64,000 bases of DNA, from positions 121,280 to 185,279 of the forward strand of contig CAVSHT010000013.1 in NCBI GenBank assembly GCA_963727895.1, in the 5' to 3' direction. The stretch comes from an uncultured Methanosarcinaceae archaeon (GTDB lineage: Archaea > Halobacteriota > Methanosarcinia > Methanosarcinales > Methanosarcinaceae). Position 1 is the first letter of the stretch, and each line of letters begins with the position of its first letter. The position numbers and the translations under genes are program-made. The notes below the pieces were generated by a model. It did no database searches. It saw nothing but the letters and a program-made list of their open reading frames with translations, and was not told where the DNA came from. This document shows, one piece after another, positions 55,134 to 63,745 of the stretch.

Positions 55134-55286
55134 GTGTGTAGTGTTGGAGATGCATTTGATCTTGATATGGAAGGAAACTTACCAGTTAAAGATTATGTTT
55201 GTAAGGATTGCGGAAATAAATTTAAAGGTATTGGTAAAAATGTGACATGCCCTTCATGTCAATCTAAAAATGTAGCAGAATCCTGA
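55134..55286 (+). CDS. 50-aa zinc-ribbon protein
   Basis: CKDCGNKF...CPSCQSKNV; GGAGGT RBS; GTG start; below the ORF-track cutoff. Confidence 0.75.
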   Translation: MCSVGDAFDLDMEGNLPVKDYVCKDCGNKFKGIGKNVTCPSCQSKNVAES

Positions 55287-55323
55287 AAATTAACTAAAAT
55301 TTTTAGCTATATCTTTTTTTAAT

Positions 55324-55809
55324 ATGAAGAAATTGACCTATTCCAAAAACATTTCACTGAAGGAAAGTGAGATTCTTTTCCTGCGTGGCACGGCAGGAAT
55401 AGTGGCTATTGTGAAAGTCGGCCCGAATGGACAGTTTTTTCTGGAAACTGAAAACGAAGAGATTGTACTAGGACTTGAGTCCCATGACCTGATTGCTGCG
55501 TCTTCTCTGTCTGTAAATGAGAAAACTGAAAAAGGACTTAAATGTATTCTCTACATGATCCGGGAAATAAGGTCACCATTAATAGTGCTTCCAAATAACC
55601 ATCCTGCATCTCCTCGGCTTCCAATCGTAGTGTCAGCAGGTGGAAAAACTGTTCTAAGCTGTAACATTACACCTGGCACGCATCCTAATCAGGACGTACT
55701 TTGCGGTTCAAACGAATTTGATAGTATGGAAATAACAGGAACATTGGAGGGCGTACAGATTAAAAATCTACCACAATGTGAAATATTAAAGATCAATTTT
55801 GATATCTGA
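55324..55809 (+). CDS. Hypothetical protein
   Basis: 161-aa ORF, likely co-transcribed with the zinc-ribbon gene. Confidence 0.7.
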   Translation: MKKLTYSKNISLKESEILFLRGTAGIVAIVKVGPNGQFFLETENEEIVLGLESHDLIAASSLSVNEKTEKGLKCILYMIREIRSPLIVLPNNHPASPRLPIVVSAGGKTVLSCNITPGTHPNQDVLCGSNEFDSMEITGTLEGVQIKNLPQCEILKINFDI

Positions 55810-56458
55810 TCGGCATATCATGAAAATCTTAGGTTATTTAATGCTAAAAGTCTCTTTGAATAATCCTTTGATATTTATGAAATAATGTAGAGAAAAAGAT
55901 ACAATCGGTTAGAATGTTGAATGTTAGAATCTTAAGTTAGCATAAAAATGAAGGAAAATAAAAAGAAAGCCAAAAGTTTCATATCTGGCTATATATCATC
56001 AAACTTTTAAGAACAACCCCAACAACGATAAAACCAAACACTAAAATAAAAATCAAAACCAAAAGGTTGAGGATGATCTGGTTAATTCTTGGATGAAAGG
56101 TCCCCATTCCAAACATCCGAATTACCATATATATTAATGCTAGAATTGTATATCTTGTTTTCGAATCACAAAAATTAGCATAGAAAGTTGAATTGGAAGA
56201 GGAAGATATTAAATATAGCTTAAAGAAGAAAACGAAAAAATTATTTTTACCTACTCGATTCCCAGATTTTTGATGAATTTATTTATATGTTATTTCATTA
56301 TAATTTGGATATTTAGTCCTGCCAGTACTTGTAATCCTCAGTCTTTTTACTAGTTGACCTTTTCCATCCTGATATCGATGTATAATTGATATCTTAGTAT
56401 TTTATTGATATATTCTAGTCCTTTCCTCAAGATACTGTTTTTTTGAATATTTATTCTT

Positions 56459-57198
56459 GGTATTGTTACTTAACTATATCTAGTTCTTTATTTCTGTATT
56501 TCATCAATAGAATCACCGAGTACTTTAGCATTTCAAGACTCTTCGTATAACACTTTGTCTTTCTTCTCAACCTTGCCAAAAAGTGCCTCAATATGCTGTT
56601 ATATCCCTCAACTGTAAATGTTTCTGCTTTTGATTGAGTATGAATCGTTTCAGGAAGAAACTCTGCATATGCCCTCCAGTGATCTGTCATCACTTCTCCA
56701 ATGTCTTTTTTCTTCAATTTTTCCCAGAGTAGTTTTCCAGTTTCCGTTCCTCTGATGCCAAAAGAGCAGTTGATGAACTTTTTCCCAACTCCATCAACAG
56801 CAATCTAGATCCAGCAATATTTTTTTTGTTACCGATGTAAGTGTGCATTTCATCCATTTCAACAATAGATATCTCATTTTCACTTTTTAGGTTCTCTAAC
56901 TCCTGACCAAATTTCTTGATCCATTTTTGGACAGAAACATGACTTACCCCTAAAACTCTTCCTATTGAGCGAAAGCCCAATCCTTCAAGATAGAGTTGTA
57001 AAGCCTGTCTTTTTACAGAAGCGGAAAAAGCAGTTGATTTTAGCTCTACTGTATAGTTATAGCCACAATCATGGCATTTGTAGCGTTGACGCCCGCCAAC
57101 TATACCATTCTTTTTGTGACTGGAACTATTGCATCTGGGGCAGTTAATGAAGAAATATACTTTCTAATAGTATATAACTATGTTTAAGTATCAATGCC
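56459..57198 (-). mobile_element. IS1-family element, full length (copy 5)
   Basis: IRs GGCATTGATACTTAAAC / GGTATTGTTACTTAAC; A8 slippery site; TAG in the DDE frame at 56805-56807. Confidence 0.92.
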
Positions 57199-57270
57199 GA
57201 ATATATATTTATATCATTATGTTCATGCAAACATAACGATTAATCCATAAAAAGTCTTGCAGGTATATCT

Positions 57271-58368
57271 ATGCGTAGAAAAATAGGTACGATATTACTT
57301 CTTTCTATTTTGATTCTGGCTGTTGCATCCTGCGGATGCACAGAAAATACGAATCAACAAACTGCCCAGAACGCCAGCACTACACAGATCACTGACATGC
57401 TGGGTAGGCAGTTGACTGTGCCGGCAAATATCTCTTCAGTTGTAGCCACTTCTCCGCCTTCAACTATTCTAGTTTACATGCTTGCTCCGGAAAAACTTGC
57501 AGGCTGGAATTCAAAAAACAATTTCACTCAACCTTTTATGGATAAAAATTACTCAAATCTGCCTGTAATAGGAGGCTGGTTTGGAACACAGACCGGGAGC
57601 TATGAAACCATAATCAACATGCATCCTGACGTTGTAATTGAAGGGTACACCACAGATGGAGAAATCCATGAAGCTATAGAGCGCAGACAGGAGAATTTTG
57701 GAAGCATTCCTGTTGTGGGTATCAATGACTCTATTATATTCGTAAATCAGTCTGATACCACAATACAGTATGTGGGTAAACTGCTTAATTGTGAAGACCA
57801 GGCGAAAAAACTGATAGAATTCCGCAGTTCAATCCTTAAAGAGATAAATAGCACTGTAAAAGACATTCCAGAAGACCAGAAAATACATGTTTATTATGCT
57901 GAAGGTCCAAAGGGACTAATGACCGACCCTTCAGGTTCTCAGCATTCCCAGGTTATTGATATCTGTGGTGGTATCAATGTTGCAGACTGTCAGCTTACAC
58001 CAGGAAATGGAATGACACAGGTTTCAATAGAACAGATCCTAAAGTGGAATCCTCAGGTAATTCTCACATCAAATCCACAATTCTATTCAACAGTGTACTC
58101 TGACTCTACCTGGGCAAGTATAGATGCTGTAAAAAACAAACGAATATATCTTGCTCCTCAAAATCCTTTTTGCTGGATTGACAGACCACAGGGTCCTCAT
58201 CTCATAATCGGAACTGCCTGGACTGCAAAAATGCTGTATCCAGACCGCTTCAAAGATATGGATCTTCCCAATCTGACCCGTGAGTTCTACTCGGAATTCT
58301 TCCACTATAACCTCACAGATAAAGAACTGAATTCACTACTTAACTCTTCAACAGAGGCTAAGACGTGA
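57271..58368 (+). CDS. Iron-chelate/cobalamin-type ABC substrate-binding lipoprotein
   Basis: ASCGC lipobox; ITDMLGR, VSIEQI..WNP and DAVKNKRIY..P...WIDRP motifs. Confidence 0.88.
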   Translation: MRRKIGTILLLSILILAVASCGCTENTNQQTAQNASTTQITDMLGRQLTVPANISSVVATSPPSTILVYMLAPEKLAGWNSKNNFTQPFMDKNYSNLPVIGGWFGTQTGSYETIINMHPDVVIEGYTTDGEIHEAIERRQENFGSIPVVGINDSIIFVNQSDTTIQYVGKLLNCEDQAKKLIEFRSSILKEINSTVKDIPEDQKIHVYYAEGPKGLMTDPSGSQHSQVIDICGGINVADCQLTPGNGMTQVSIEQILKWNPQVILTSNPQFYSTVYSDSTWASIDAVKNKRIYLAPQNPFCWIDRPQGPHLIIGTAWTAKMLYPDRFKDMDLPNLTREFYSEFFHYNLTDKELNSLLNSSTEAKT

Positions 58369-58988
58369 GTGAGAAAGACAAATCACCGGATTTTCCCTAT
58401 ATTGCAGAGAATATCTTTGCTCCCATTTACCCTGTAATAGCCGCTAATATTGTCAAACAAAGCGGAATCGAGAAAGGAATATGTCTTGACCTGGGATGCG
58501 GTATAGCATCCCTTGGAATTTCTGTTGCGGAAATCACAGATATGCAGGTATATGGTATCGATATCTCAACTAAAATGTGCCGGTTTTCAAAAAACAAAGC
58601 CTTGCGCCACGGTCTTTCAGACAAAGTTGTTCCTGTGCAGTCTGATGTGCACCTGCTCCCTTTCAGGAATAACTGTGCAGACCTGATAGTAAGTCGGGGA
58701 TCCGTATTTTTCTGGAATGACCTGCCTGTTGCCTTTAAAGAAATTTCTCGTGTGCTTGCTCCTGGCGGGCAGGCATGGGTAGGAGGCGGCTTCGGCACAA
58801 AAGAATTGAGAGCACAGATTTCAGAACAGATGGTTGAAATAGATCCGGACTGGCATGCCAGTTCAAAAGAACGTCTCAGTCCAAAAAACCTTCCGGCTAT
58901 ACAGGAAGCTGGAAGGCAGACATAGATTCCCTGTCATGTAGTACAGGATGAATCAGGGTTCTGGATGGTATTAAGCAAGGAAGGTTAA
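58365..58988 (+). CDS. Class I SAM-dependent methyltransferase with in-frame TAG
   Basis: CLDLGCG, GIDIS, DLIVSRGS and VLAPGG motifs; TAG at 58923-58925, then open to TAA at 58988. Confidence 0.82.
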
Positions 58989-58990
58989 AA

Positions 58991-60763
58991 ATGAAGTGTA
59001 ATGTATGCGAATTCGGGTGTGAAATCGATAAATACAGCAGGGGAAGATGTGGGAACTACATATGTGAAGGCAATACTATTATCCAGGATCCTGACCTCGG
59101 AGATCTTGGATCATATCCTGTTTCTATAGAAACTGTTCCCTTACTCCATTACTATCCCTCAGGTAAATTCCTTCAGGTTTTCAGTACAGGATGCAATTTT
59201 CAGTGTTCAGGTTGTGTAGCTCGCCTGCTCGCATCAGGGAAATCACTCGATCTTCCTGTCCTTACCCCATCTCAGGTAGTGGAAAGAGCAGTGCAACAAA
59301 AGTGTCTGGGAGTAGTTTCTACACTCAATGAACCTGCTGCAAACTATTATCTGTTTAAAGATCTTGCGATAAAGGCAAAAGAAAGATGTTTACTAGTAGG
59401 CTGTTCCACAAACTGCTATTTCACAGATGAAACCATGGAAGAGCTTGGAAAGTTTGTAGATTTCATGAATGTAGGAATTAAAGGTTACTCTGATAAGAGT
59501 TACATAAATTGCGGAGTTCCGTCCTCAGAGCCTGTTTTTCGTAATATTTCCAGGCTTTTCGATATGGGTGTCCATGTTGAAACATCGGTCGTTTACTTAA
59601 AAGGAAATGAAGACGACGTGATAAAGGTTGTCAAAGCATTGTCTGATATTTCCCCTACAATTCCGGTTCAAGTAATGAGATTTATTCCTTTTGGGGATGC
59701 TCCGATTGAACTTGAACCCTCTGTAGGAGAGGCGGAGAGCCTGTGTACTGCTCTGCGTAAATATGTAGATTATGTTTATCTCTTCAACTCTCCAGGTACG
59801 GAATCATTAAATACGTACTGTCCCGAGTGTGGTAGTCTTCTTACAGAAAGGGAGTTTTACGGGCCTATGGGTGCCAAGCCTTTAAAACCTTGGATAAATT
59901 ACTCCTGCACTTGCGGAAAAAGTATTCCGGTCAAAGGAACAACTGCGACTGAAATCTTTAACGAAGAAGGTTTTATGGGTGGTTACAGGATAAGCCGAGC
60001 TTTCAGTATGGTTCATGCAATACTCATATGCCTGGGTATACTGGACGATCAAAGGTTAATTGAAATCTGAGAGAAAGTCTCCAATCCCGAAACCCTGAGG
60101 CAAATACACCAGGTAGTACAACAGCCATATTCCTATCTTGAGTTCATCAGGCTTATTGCTGAAAAAGCAAATGTACCGGAAAAAGGTGAAGAACTTATTT
60201 CATATATCCGCAAACGTCTGGAAATTGTCGAATCTCTTGCAGAGGAAAATAGTGGTCATAAAGTTTATTATTGTATGGGCTCTCCTCTTTTTGCTCTGAA
60301 TGCTGGAAGAATGGAAAATAATCTTGTGGCGTTTTCTGGGGGAGTAAGTATTAATAAACAGATTCAAAAAGAAGGCAAACCAGGTGTAAATGTTTCTCCC
60401 TTGTTTATAAATGAGCAGAATCCGAAAACTATTTTTATTTCGGGGTTCCTTTCCCGTCCTCTCGATGAGTTCTATGATCTGTGCCAGAAATACGGTATAT
60501 GTGCAGATGCGGTAAAAGAACATAGGGTCTATGAAATTCCACCTTCCTGGGATTTTGGAAATCCACGCTGGATACTTGGACTGATGTACATAGCCAACAA
60601 ATTGAATCCAGAAAACTCAGCAATTGACCTGAAAAAGGAAGCAGATGAATTTTATCTACGGTTTTATGGCATACTGTTTGAGGAAGTAAAACCTAACAGA
60701 TCTTTTCACAGACTTTCTTCAGGTATCTGGCCCAAAAACGTAGTGAAGTATTCTGATGCGTGA
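58991..60763 (+). pseudogene. Radical SAM protein (PFL-activase/AmmeMemoRadiSam-like) fused to an SBP-like C-terminal domain; one in-frame TGA
   Basis: CNFQCSGC motif; N-terminal CNVC..GC; TYCPECG; TGA at 60068-60070, same frame continues into 60275-60763. Confidence 0.8.
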
Positions 60764-61775
60764 TTACAGATGTAGTCGCATTACTCTGGTGTACCTGTTA
60801 CTCTTTGTATTACTCATAATATCTCTTTTTATAGGAAGATATCAGACTCCTCTGTCAGATGTTGTAAGCGAGAGTGGAAAAGCTTTCTCATCTCTTTTTT
60901 TGGCACTCCTGTTTCAGTTTCCGATCAACATACAGTACTTTTCAATGTAAGGTTGCCAAGGATACTTGCAGCTTTACTGGTAGGATCAGCTCTTTCAATA
61001 GCTGGAGCTTCTTTTCAGGGAATATTTCGTAATCCTCTTGTGTCTCCTTATATACTTGGAGTAGGAGCAGGAGCAGGTTTTGGAGCGTGCCTTGCAATCC
61101 TGCTCTGGAACAGTTATCTGTTTATACAACTGATGGCTTTTGCTTTCGGGCTCTTAGCGATTTTTATTGCTATAAGTATGGGTAAAGCCAGCAAAGGTAC
61201 TGGAACTCTGGTATTTGTGCTTTCAGGAATTATTGTTGGTTCGATTTTCATGGCTCTTACATCACTGGCAAAGTACGTGGCAGATCCTTATGATCAACTT
61301 CCTGCAATAGTTTTCTGGCTTATGGGAAGCCTTTCCACTGTCAGATATACTGATTTACTCTACATATTATTGCCAATATTTATTGGCACTATCGTACTGC
61401 TTCTTCTCAGGTGGCGTATCAACATTTTATCTCTAGGAGATGAGGAAGCTAAAGCTCTTGGGATGGATGTGGAAAAAATGCGCCTAATCATAATTCATTT
61501 GCGCAACCCTTGTCACTTCAGCAGCAGTCAGTATCAGTGGTGTCATTGGATGGGTCGGACTGGTTGTTCCTCATATCTCTAGAATGATAGTAGGACCCAA
61601 TTATAGCCGCCTTTTGCCTATGAGCATGGTTATTGGGGCATCGTTTATGCTGATTGTGGATGACCTTTCAAGAACTATTATAGCTACAGAAATTCCCCTG
61701 GGAATCCTTACTTCCCTGGTAGGAGCTCCGCTGTTTGCATATCTTGTTAAGAAGAGGAGGATGGGATGGAATTGA
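60756..61775 (+). pseudogene. FecCD/BtuC-family ABC permease with two frameshifts
   Basis: RLPR, FQGIFRNPLVSP..LG, FWLMGS, LGDEEAKALG and IG(W)VGL.VPH motifs; shifts at T7 (60895-60901) and near 61495. Confidence 0.88.
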
Positions 61776-62541
61776 TGTTGGAAGTAAAATCCCTTTCTTT
61801 CTCTTACGGAAACAAGCCAGTCTTTGAAAATGTATCTTTTTCGCTAAAAAAGGTGAGATCATGTGCATTCTGGGCCCAAACGGAGCAGGAAAATCTACAC
61901 TTATCAAATGTATTGCAGGGATTCTCAAACCCAATGTCGGCTCTATCTATATTCAAGGAGAAGATACAGCTTTTCTTGGGGTAAGAGGTATTGCCAGGCA
62001 GATAGGATATGTACCGCAGCAGAATGAAGTGGTTTTTCCATTTACCGTACTGGATTTTGTAGTTATGGGACGTGTTCCGCATCTTTCCATGTTTGAATCC
62101 CCTGGCGCCGACGATATTAAACTTGCAAAAGAATCGCTTGCAATGGTAGGAATTTCCGATCTTGCAGAAAGACCGGTTTCCAACCTCAGTGGAGGACAGA
62201 GCCAAATGGTGCTTATTGCTAGAGCTCTTGTCCAGAAGCCTTCTTTGCTTTTGCTGGATGAACCAACTTCTCACCTTGATTTTGGAAACCAGATCCTTGT
62301 ACTGGAAACTGTCAAAAAACTTGCTTTACTTGGGATGTCTATTATAATGAATACTCATATGCCAGACCATGCTTTCCTTTTAGGTGACAAGACTGCAGCA
62401 CTAGCTGGAGGTAGACTGGTTGCCATAGGAGAGGTTGAAACTGTAGTGACCAGCAAAACGATGTCTTTACTATATGGAGTAAATGTAGCTGTCAGAGAAA
62501 TTGAAGATATGAAAAAAAGTGTGTCTACCCTTTTAAAGTGA
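61766..62541 (+). pseudogene. FecE/BtuD-family ABC ATPase with one frameshift
   Basis: GPNGAGKST, LSGGQ and LLLDEPT motifs; N-terminus shifted at A6 (61846-61851). Confidence 0.88.
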
Positions 62542-62720
62542 AAAACTAAGAATTAATTTTGTTTTTTTGTCCCTGTCGGCTTTATAATATTTTTAAAAGA
62601 ATCATAATAAACAGGCGTTCTAAAAATTAGAATCAACTAAGAATTTGAAAATTAGTTTTGAGGATAGAAACTCATTTTTTGTGCAAGGACCTAGTTGATT
62701 AACCAGTAATATAAAAAGAA

Positions 62721-63524
<804 letters not shown>

Positions 63525-63550: not shown

Positions 63551-63745
63551 TTAGTAGATTTCCTTAACTCTTCCAACCTGACCACTCGTTAGTTGGACTT
63601 TTATTCCGTGTGGATGAGTTGAAGAATTGGTTAAAATTCTTTTTACAATTCCCTTAGTAATTTTTCCGGTTCTCTGGTCTTCTTTTAAGACAATCCCTAC
63701 ATTCATTCCTTCTTTGATATTTGCTCTAATAGTACCATTATTCAT
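63551..63745 (-). CDS. YwbE-family (DUF2196) protein
   Basis: IVLKEDQRTG.IT.G.V..ILT.S..HPHGIKV.L..GQVGRV. Confidence 0.88.
   Translation of the reverse strand: MNNGTIRANIKEGMNVGIVLKEDQRTGKITKGIVKRILTNSSTHPHGIKVQLTSGQVGRVKEIY

Follow-up and report, generated by a model that had tools for sequence, protein, structure and literature searches.

Among characterised systems, the importer genes considered here are closest to MolBC-A of Haemophilus influenzae (HI1470/HI1471/HI1472). They are part of a five-gene operon at positions 57271–62541 of a 64,000-nucleotide stretch of DNA (the window) from an uncultured Methanosarcinaceae archaeon (GenBank contig CAVSHT010000013.1). All five genes are on one strand with ends that overlap or abut, as seen in the open reading frame (ORF) listing and its translation. 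They are termed S (substrate-binding protein, SBP), M (methyltransferase), R (a radical S-adenosylmethionine (SAM) protein fused to part of an SBP), P (permease) and A (ATPase). MolBC-A is similar to the window operon in the type of its SBP, permease and ATPase, however it has neither a methyltransferase nor a radical SAM partner. Both molybdate and tungstate are ligands of MolA, and molybdate represses molB (PMC4031551). The repression of molB by molybdate parallels the ModE repression predicted for the window operon.

Several other described proteins resemble single members of the operon. MA1204 of Methanosarcina acetivorans appears to belong to the same family as the R fusion, and a ModE box upstream of it binds ModE in electrophoretic mobility shift assays (EMSA). 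Unlike R of the window, MA1204 is a stand-alone paralogue beside anfH with no methyltransferase or importer, and its SBP-like domain goes unmentioned in the excerpt of PMC12327845. ChuW/HutW/HmuW are cytoplasmic radical SAM enzymes encoded within heme uptake operons where they process an imported metal carrier, which is the logic proposed here. In contrast to the fusion they are HemN-like class C enzymes, in which a single protein performs both methyl transfer and radical chemistry; they act on heme and lack an SBP-like domain. The pyruvate formate-lyase (PFL) activating enzyme and AmmeMemoRadiSam are the best fold and NCBIfam matches of the radical SAM part of R, but they have protein partners and no C-terminal SBP-like domain, and the fusion scores far below the family cutoffs. 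MMP1179 of Methanococcus maripaludis (PDB entry 3dlc) matches the operon methyltransferase at the level of an orthologue.

The window operon is very probably a decayed copy of a conserved molybdenum-regulated gene family. That M and R of intact relatives process an imported molybdenum or tungsten cargo in the cytoplasm is proposed tentatively, with somewhat less than even confidence. The overall reading, which blends the regulatory claim for the family with this mechanism, has about an even chance of being correct.

The radical SAM fusion protein

The R frame (58991–60766) displays a lone in-frame TGA codon at 60068–60070; the rest is open and translates to 590 codons. The codon at this position is TGG (Trp) in a paralogue of the same genome and in seven of seven aligned orthologues, and the column of this residue, Trp360, is almost invariant in an alignment of 77 sequences. 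Selenocysteine incorporation or other recoding at 60068–60070 is rejected because the relatives carry TGG. A preliminary description of this DNA had taken the five genes as a tightly coupled operon, had supposed that the TGA replaces TGG, and had read through it into a domain likened by eye to the C-lobe of the operon's own SBP; the analysis bears out all three points. Intact forms of 578–633 amino acids (aa) in relatives show that the fusion is genuine and conserved and is not an artefact of reading through a stop codon. Two further fusions are present in the source genome: that of contig C3 is intact, and contig C11 encodes a 642-aa paralogue.

The fusion has no signal peptide, as was also described before, and displays instead a Cys-rich N-terminal motif, MKCNVCEFGC. 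It is a member of the radical SAM family PF04055 (51.2 bits, cutoff 29.5). Residues C68, C72 and C75, which form the CxxxCxxC cluster motif, are invariant across the 77 sequences, and the window copy has GCNFQCSGC at this location. There are two further conserved groups of four Cys residues, C3/C6/C10/C20 and C277/C280/C306/C308. From its Cys spacing, the Cys4 insert that follows the PFL-activase-like core is probably zinc-ribbon-like.

In an AlphaFold (AF2) model of the intact paralogue (pLDDT 88.8, pTM 0.89), residues 31–264 superpose on the PFL activating enzyme 3c8f with Z 19.0 and a root mean square deviation (rmsd) of 2.9 over 222 aligned residues. The likeness to the glycyl-radical activases is one of fold alone, as R scores 23.4 bits against a cutoff of 174 for TIGR02494 and is not a member. 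TIGR04337 (AmmeMemoRadiSam) is the best NCBIfam match (83.7 bits, E-value = 1.1e-23), however this is below the curated cutoff of 220 and R is not a member of this family either. A distinct AmmeMemoRadiSam-type gene, 30% identical, is present elsewhere in the source genome. Comparison with NifB by fold and profile gives a core fold Z of 17.2 and a profile E-value of about 0.009, and there is no NifB family match in NCBIfam. No HemN-like family was found by the Pfam scan (E-values up to 0.01, which returned Radical_SAM and Fer4_12 only) or in NCBIfam. B12-binding families likewise gave no match in Pfam or NCBIfam, and the fusion does not qualify as a class B enzyme.

The last approximately 250 residues of the fusion are a truncated class III SBP (PF01497), as seen by BLASTP, profile and structure comparisons. 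Positions 165–344 of the operon SBP align with positions 386–559 of the fusion with 27% identity over 187 residues (BLASTP, E-value = 2e-8). The Pfam Peripla_BP_2 model matches the C-terminal part of the window copy with an E-value of 4.9e-5 and 23.3 bits, which is under its cutoff of 27.5. A profile of the fusion family matches PDB chains 4hn9 (3e-15), 4pag (1e-14) and MolA (6.6e-7), and Foldseek matches the fusion to 4ovk (1.9e-10). Residues ~337–564 of the model superpose on 4hn9 with Z 20.5 and rmsd 2.8 over 217 aligned residues (VIA-align); CeuE (Z 18.3), MolA 3psa (Z 17.9) and BtuF (Z 14.9) also superpose.

The domain is not a full two-lobe exported SBP. Profile matches begin at residue 114–150 of the SBP chains, and about 217–226 of 316–349 SBP residues superpose, starting from inside the N-lobe. 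In the model, the aligned 217 residues would comprise N-lobe helices, the backbone helix and the C-lobe. This is about two thirds of an SBP, thus the earlier designation as a C-lobe is roughly right. Prediction of a complex between the fusion and the methyltransferase with two alignments gave a score of 0.00, which provides no verdict either way.

Conservation and predicted molybdenum regulation of the operon

The read-through fusion sequence used as a query gives 537 relatives. Among the best 120 of these, intact fusions are mostly 578–633 aa in length, the database names are only "radical SAM protein" or "PFL-activating enzyme", and the organisms include Methanosarcina, Methanolobus, Methanococcoides, Methanothrix, Methanotorris, Methanococcus, Methanolliviera and Desulfatiglandales. 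In the ESM Atlas the fusion falls in a cluster of its own that has 855 members and no name. Scans of one genome per species yielded 303 loci when the query was archaeal-centred and 199 when it was bacterial-centred, the latter including Syntrophomonas, Desulfosporosinus, Pelotomaculum, Sporomusa, Geobacter, Desulfovibrio, Desulfobacter and Desulfosarcina.

For the analysis of neighbouring genes, ORFs were called and clustered; six duplicate loci were dropped, together with seven that had no R ORF of at least 450 aa, leaving 148 unique loci (60 archaeal and 88 bacterial). The methyltransferase adjoins R in 96 of the 148 (46 of 60 archaeal and 50 of 88 bacterial loci). At least one of SBP, permease and ATPase is found in 117 loci and all three in 72. 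In the subset with at least 3 kb on both sides (n = 97), the methyltransferase is adjacent in 67 and at least one importer gene is present in 84. The window operon is a copy of a conserved five-gene set of strict anaerobes, and the neighbourhood whose conservation the preliminary description had left to be checked is kept. The authors of that description knew of no characterised system with this layout; none turned up here, nor any characterisation of the fusion or of the operon, in the full-text literature searched, a coverage that does not extend to subscription journals.

Other recurrent neighbours are DUF364/DUF4213 proteins, TonB-dependent receptors with ExbB, ModA/ModB-like proteins, FmdE with a DksA-type zinc finger, CobW-like GTPases, and ModD-like, NifX-like, XdhC and DUF134 proteins. 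In M. maripaludis, DUF364 is located in a modABC operon and is cofit with nifH (bioRxiv 10.1101/2024.03.05.583561). Apparent insertions of about 2.5 kb in Syntrophomonas R genes are an artefact, as the match had taken in the C-lobe of the upstream SBP; the R gene as such is ordinary. Desulfosporosinus fructosivorans (L100) shows two nitrogenase D/K-like genes and one NifH-like gene between M and R, with a second NifH/P-II/NifDK set thereafter. This may be a nitrogenase-like system coupled to the M/R module. In L098, L099, L101, L102, L105 and L160 (Desulfosporosinus and one Syntrophomonadaceae), a separate radical SAM protein of about 290–330 aa is encoded directly before the fusion gene; in some loci its gene replaces the methyltransferase and is located directly behind a molybdenum cofactor (Moco) riboswitch.

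The ModE operator of Methanosarcina is RTTATGT-N8-RCATAAY (PMC12327845, 2025). In the same paper ModE binds by EMSA upstream of ma1204, which is annotated as a "radical SAM protein" of unknown function divergent from anfH, and boxes are reported 33 bp before two "Fe ABC transporter" operons. The box ahead of the window operon is the only exact site in the 64-kb window, and exact matches occur in 0 of 100 shuffled sequences. Exact boxes are present in 26 of 86 loci scanned, typically about 33 bp before the SBP gene or between R and a nifH-like gene. Tolerance of one mismatch gives boxes no more than 400 bp from the operon start in 27 loci, all of which are in the archaeal set (L005–L039 and L066); none was found in the Methanomicrobiales or bacterial loci scanned.

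The whole 3.67-Mb genome has six exact boxes, of which three precede R-family genes. The other three are before a ModB-type ABC permease gene (C5:313226), about 800 bp before a molybdopterin oxidoreductase gene (C7:58886), and in the gap that separates a FecCD/ATPase pair from a divergent Peripla_BP_2 SBP gene (C11:18391). These three mirror the published ModE regulon of M. acetivorans. The operator is thus in the promoter region of the window operon as in a ModE regulon; it is a predicted site, EMSA binding being reported for ma1204 and other M. acetivorans promoters.

The C11 paralogue adjoins genes for NifH, P-II, nitrogenase D/K-like and AnfG/VnfG proteins. In Methanosarcina sp. T3 (L026), R and a nifH-like gene are arranged divergently, and the R protein shares 97% identity with the 597-aa fusion AAM04623.1 of M. 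acetivorans. By its position AAM04623.1 is probably MA1204. The published ma1204 operator string has no match in the genome contigs searched, thus MA1204 is identified by position and by the 97% identity of the sister-species protein.

A blind Rfam scan of 27 bacterial loci, i.e. loci taken without preselection, showed the Moco/tungsten cofactor (Wco) riboswitch RF01055 in four and a cobalamin riboswitch in none. The first, in a Syntrophomonadaceae genome, immediately precedes an operon of order P-A-M-R-S. A covariance model based on the four sequences gives 21 matches in 17 of the 91 bacterial sources on which it was run, all on the R strand; Rfam confirmed all 16 sources that were run (55.7–80.8 bits, cutoff 36). 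Thirteen riboswitches are directly upstream of the R-containing operon. Four others are behind R, before an XdhC gene with a methyltransferase gene, an O-methyltransferase-like gene, a formate-dehydrogenase-like gene or a gene of unknown type. In a Geobacteraceae locus (L147, 2243–2777), a Moco-II RNA motif is flanked by two Moco aptamers in tandem, and this array precedes the genes for a TonB receptor and the fusion. From these predicted regulatory sites, the operon is assigned to a molybdenum regulon through the ModE operator in Methanosarcinales and through Moco/Wco riboswitches in Bacillota and Geobacter relatives.

A decayed copy between insertion sequences

The window copy is a non-functional duplicate bracketed by IS1-family insertion sequences (IS). 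Positions 57200–62716 have 94% DNA identity to the operon in contig C3, which is better preserved. The differences are mostly in third codon positions, e.g. 16/2/55 in the radical SAM part, which indicates that the copies diverged under selection and that the lesions are recent. Relative to up to 12 orthologues the window operon has two nonsense codons and three frameshifts (features are listed in Table 1).

Table 1. Features of the window operon and its bracketing elements
Feature	Positions	Strand	Basis or remark
IS1-family insertion sequence, left copy, inverted relative to right copy	56458..57198	-	repeat arms shared with right copy
ModE operator, palindromic, exact RTTATGT-N8-RCATAAY	57216..57237	.	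34 bp ahead of SBP start codon
MolA-like class III substrate-binding lipoprotein (S), intact, 365 aa	57271..58368	+	Peripla_BP_2, E-value 8e-25
Small SAM-dependent methyltransferase pseudogene (M)	58365..58988	+	Methyltransf_11, E-value 4.7e-20
Radical SAM::truncated-SBP fusion pseudogene (R)	58991..60763	+	Radical_SAM Pfam match; TGA at 60068-60070
MolB-like FecCD permease pseudogene (P), three frames	60756..61775	+	FecCD matches on two pieces
ABC ATPase pseudogene (A)	61766..62541	+	ABC_tran, E-value 2.5e-30, on second frame
IS1-family insertion sequence, right copy	62721..63460	+	DDE_Tnp_IS1 match on its ORF

In the methyltransferase gene, a change of GAG to TAG at 58923–58925 eliminates the last 21 codons, leaving 186 aa where the C3 twin has 207; a sense codon is found there in 11 of 11 aligned relatives. 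As TAG can be read as pyrrolysine in Methanosarcina, some full-length methyltransferase product is conceivable. The R lesion is the change of TGG to TGA at Trp360. By comparison with the C3 twin and orthologues, the permease gene has lost a T from a T-run near 60895 and gained a base at 61496. The ATPase gene has lost an A from an A-run near 61845, and there is a 2-bp difference at 62515. Since disabling lesions are present in each of M, R, P and A, nothing of the operon function can work in the window, and the earlier remark that this copy looks decayed was an understatement.

The C3 twin (L005 9952–11734) is imperfect too. Codon 27 of its permease gene is changed from GGA to TGA, and it shares the loss in the ATPase A-run. 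Either both importers are dead in the source organism or the homopolymer call is an assembly error. The genome bin is 84% complete and consists of 19 contigs totalling 3.67 Mb. No exact copy of the window is present in the public sequencing runs searched (best share of words 0.30), and four runs that were compared have only relatives of 93–99% identity. The relatives show the intact state at 58923, 60894 and 61496 in all four runs. At the ATPase A-run (61845/61851) an extra base is present in three of the four; run X4 has no depth there.

The operon segment is bracketed exactly by inverted IS1-family copies, as in a composite transposon. The arms of the inverted repeat are 99% identical at 56458–56955/62963–63460 and 94% identical at 56948–57198/62721–62971. 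The element is about 740 bp with at least four copies in the genome, the others being in contigs C3 and C11 (L005 1193–1945, L006 15055–15799), and in both window copies the transposase frame is broken into three short ORFs. The flanks of the window operon show no synteny with C3. A clean target-site duplication is absent from the ends of the IS-bracketed segment, thus transposition as a unit is not shown. Beyond this segment, at 55134–55809 and 63551–63745, there are a zinc-ribbon protein of 50 aa, an ORF of 161 aa without a Pfam match and a DUF2196 protein. A run of ATT triplets begins directly at the outer end of the right IS copy (63461–63500 onward).

Possible function in intact relatives

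The importer genes are of MolBC-A type, the closest characterised SBP and permease being MolA and MolB. The SBP of the C3 twin matches PDB entry 4pag (6e-56) and next MolA HI1472 (3psa/3psh, 1.5e-27, full length). The window SBP is thus far closer to the uncharacterised 4pag than to MolA, and ligand binding here is a prediction. An orthologous permease has MolB (2nq2) as its best PDB match, with an E-value of 4e-75 as compared with 2e-38 for BtuC; FhuB and HmuU are also far behind. The methyltransferase orthologue matches 3dlc over its full length (5.5e-52), a structure from structural genomics that has SAM bound and to which no substrate is assigned (PMC5289526).

In the proposed mechanism, scarcity of molybdenum or tungsten cofactor would derepress the operon, and the MolBC-A-type importer would bring in a molybdenum or tungsten species. 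TonB receptors encoded alongside in Gram-negative hosts suggest that this species is bulky or scarce, i.e. in an organic or complexed form rather than free molybdate, and the likeness of the methyltransferase to large-cavity small-molecule C-methyltransferases (3dlc) likewise hints at an organic or complexed cargo. In the cytoplasm, the ligand recognised by the periplasmic SBP would pass to the half-SBP domain, which would offer it to the [4Fe-4S]/SAM site. Radical chemistry, together with methylation of the same molecule by the partner enzyme, would then release or convert the metal into a form usable for synthesis of Moco/Wco or of nitrogenase cofactor. The import-and-remodel scheme of the preliminary description is, on sequence grounds, plausible for the fusion and the methyltransferase; its account of an uncharacterised, import-associated radical SAM enzyme with an SBP-derived domain, in a decayed copy, stands, and the kind of cargo it named gives way to molybdenum or tungsten.

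Several points weigh against this proposal. MolA is a low-affinity binder of free molybdate and tungstate (PMC4031551), and such binding of a free oxyanion would call for no processing enzyme. The structural relatives of the methyltransferase, Coq5 and CouO, use organic aromatic substrates (PMC5289526), which would fit an organic ligand better than a bare oxyanion. The nitrogenase-adjacent paralogue has no methyltransferase or importer beside it. Methanomicrobiales loci display no identified regulator site, and the riboswitch is present in just 17 of the 91 bacterial sources. ModE-coregulated FecBCD-type importers have been read as iron transporters serving alternative nitrogenases (PMC12327845). 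As to the decay, the homopolymer frameshifts could partly be assembly errors. Cargo, activity and mechanism are, for the whole family, inferred from gene context.

A different role for the same genes is biosynthesis of a metallophore. Here M, R and, in bacteria, DUF364 would build a SAM-derived molybdenum or tungsten chelator, the importer and TonB receptor would retrieve it in its loaded form, and the chelator would be the substrate or product held by the half-SBP domain. Each of the three enzymes uses SAM or probably does so, and the methyltransferase resembles large-cavity small-molecule C-methyltransferases. The sole characterised DUF364 enzyme forms an azetidine amino acid by cyclising a methylated SAM, and radical SAM methylases co-occur with it (PMC12930334). 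DUF364 is found in 21 and TonB receptors in 24 of the 88 bacterial loci. However, DUF364 is present in only 4 of 60 archaeal loci, M and R are the only enzymes of the archaeal operons, and a chelator pathway would be expected to need more than two enzymes. The loci lack a conserved exporter, and this origin of the cargo appears unlikely.

The fusion may also be viewed as a maturation factor, i.e. a NifQ- or NifB-like donor or maturase for molybdenum, vanadium or tungsten that loads nitrogenase or pterin cofactors, with an oxyanion held by the half-SBP domain. One ModE-controlled paralogue is divergent from the alternative nitrogenase cluster in several Methanosarcina, the nitrogenase-like genes between M and R of D. 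fructosivorans are of the same tenor, and NifX-like, XdhC and FmdE proteins are among the neighbours. The radical SAM core superposes on NifB and there are the two extra conserved Cys4 motifs, but the similarity to NifB is no better than that to the PFL activating enzyme. Most loci are without nitrogenase (NifH/DK neighbours in 7 of 148) and importer co-location is the dominant pattern, which makes a maturation role quite unlikely.

The cargo originally suggested was a corrinoid, heme, F430 or a siderophore, to be tailored or dismantled by the radical SAM enzyme and the methyltransferase. Type II importers of the FecCD/Peripla_BP_2 kind usually carry such cargo, and ChuW/HutW show that a heme uptake operon can encode a radical SAM enzyme. 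The nearest solved relatives are nevertheless MolA and MolB and not BtuF/BtuC, HmuT/U or FhuD/B. The control sites are an exact ModE box and Moco/Wco riboswitches, with no cobalamin riboswitch in the 27 blindly scanned loci, and HemN-like and B12-binding domains were not found in Pfam or NCBIfam. This cargo is very unlikely. Supply of iron under molybdenum shortage, in which an iron complex would be imported for iron-rich alternative nitrogenases and M and R would free the iron, agrees with the published reading of the ModE-controlled FecBCD-type importers (PMC12327845) but is highly improbable, as it leaves Moco riboswitch control in non-diazotrophic contexts and the ModA/ModB, XdhC and FmdE neighbours unexplained and the closest sequences are those of MolA and MolB.

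If cytoplasmic processing of an imported molybdenum or tungsten cargo is the function, M and the half-SBP fusion R could represent an unrecognised enzymatic step of molybdenum or tungsten acquisition in sulfidic anoxic habitats. The cargo would be a thio-anion, an organic complex or a scavenged pterin cofactor that is handed over by the half-SBP domain, its metal being freed or converted by radical chemistry. This extension is rather doubtful. Molybdate is the sole molybdenum source known to be bioavailable, although M. maripaludis can use tetrathiomolybdate (PMC11484787). The occurrence of the enzyme pair in a MolBC-A-like operon, under ModE or Moco riboswitch control and in hundreds of species, makes it a concrete and testable candidate for a missing step. 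If correct, it would answer how anaerobes obtain molybdenum and tungsten where molybdate is scarce, and an SBP fold would be newly in use as the built-in cargo-handover domain of an enzyme.

The host range of the family encompasses methanogens, sulfate reducers, syntrophs and Geobacter relatives. The family also points to a possible function of MA1204, of MMP1179 (3dlc) and of the "Fe ABC transporters" in the ModE regulon of Methanosarcina. The pseudogene copy in the window is of interest only in that it points to this family and exemplifies IS-mediated duplication with subsequent decay.

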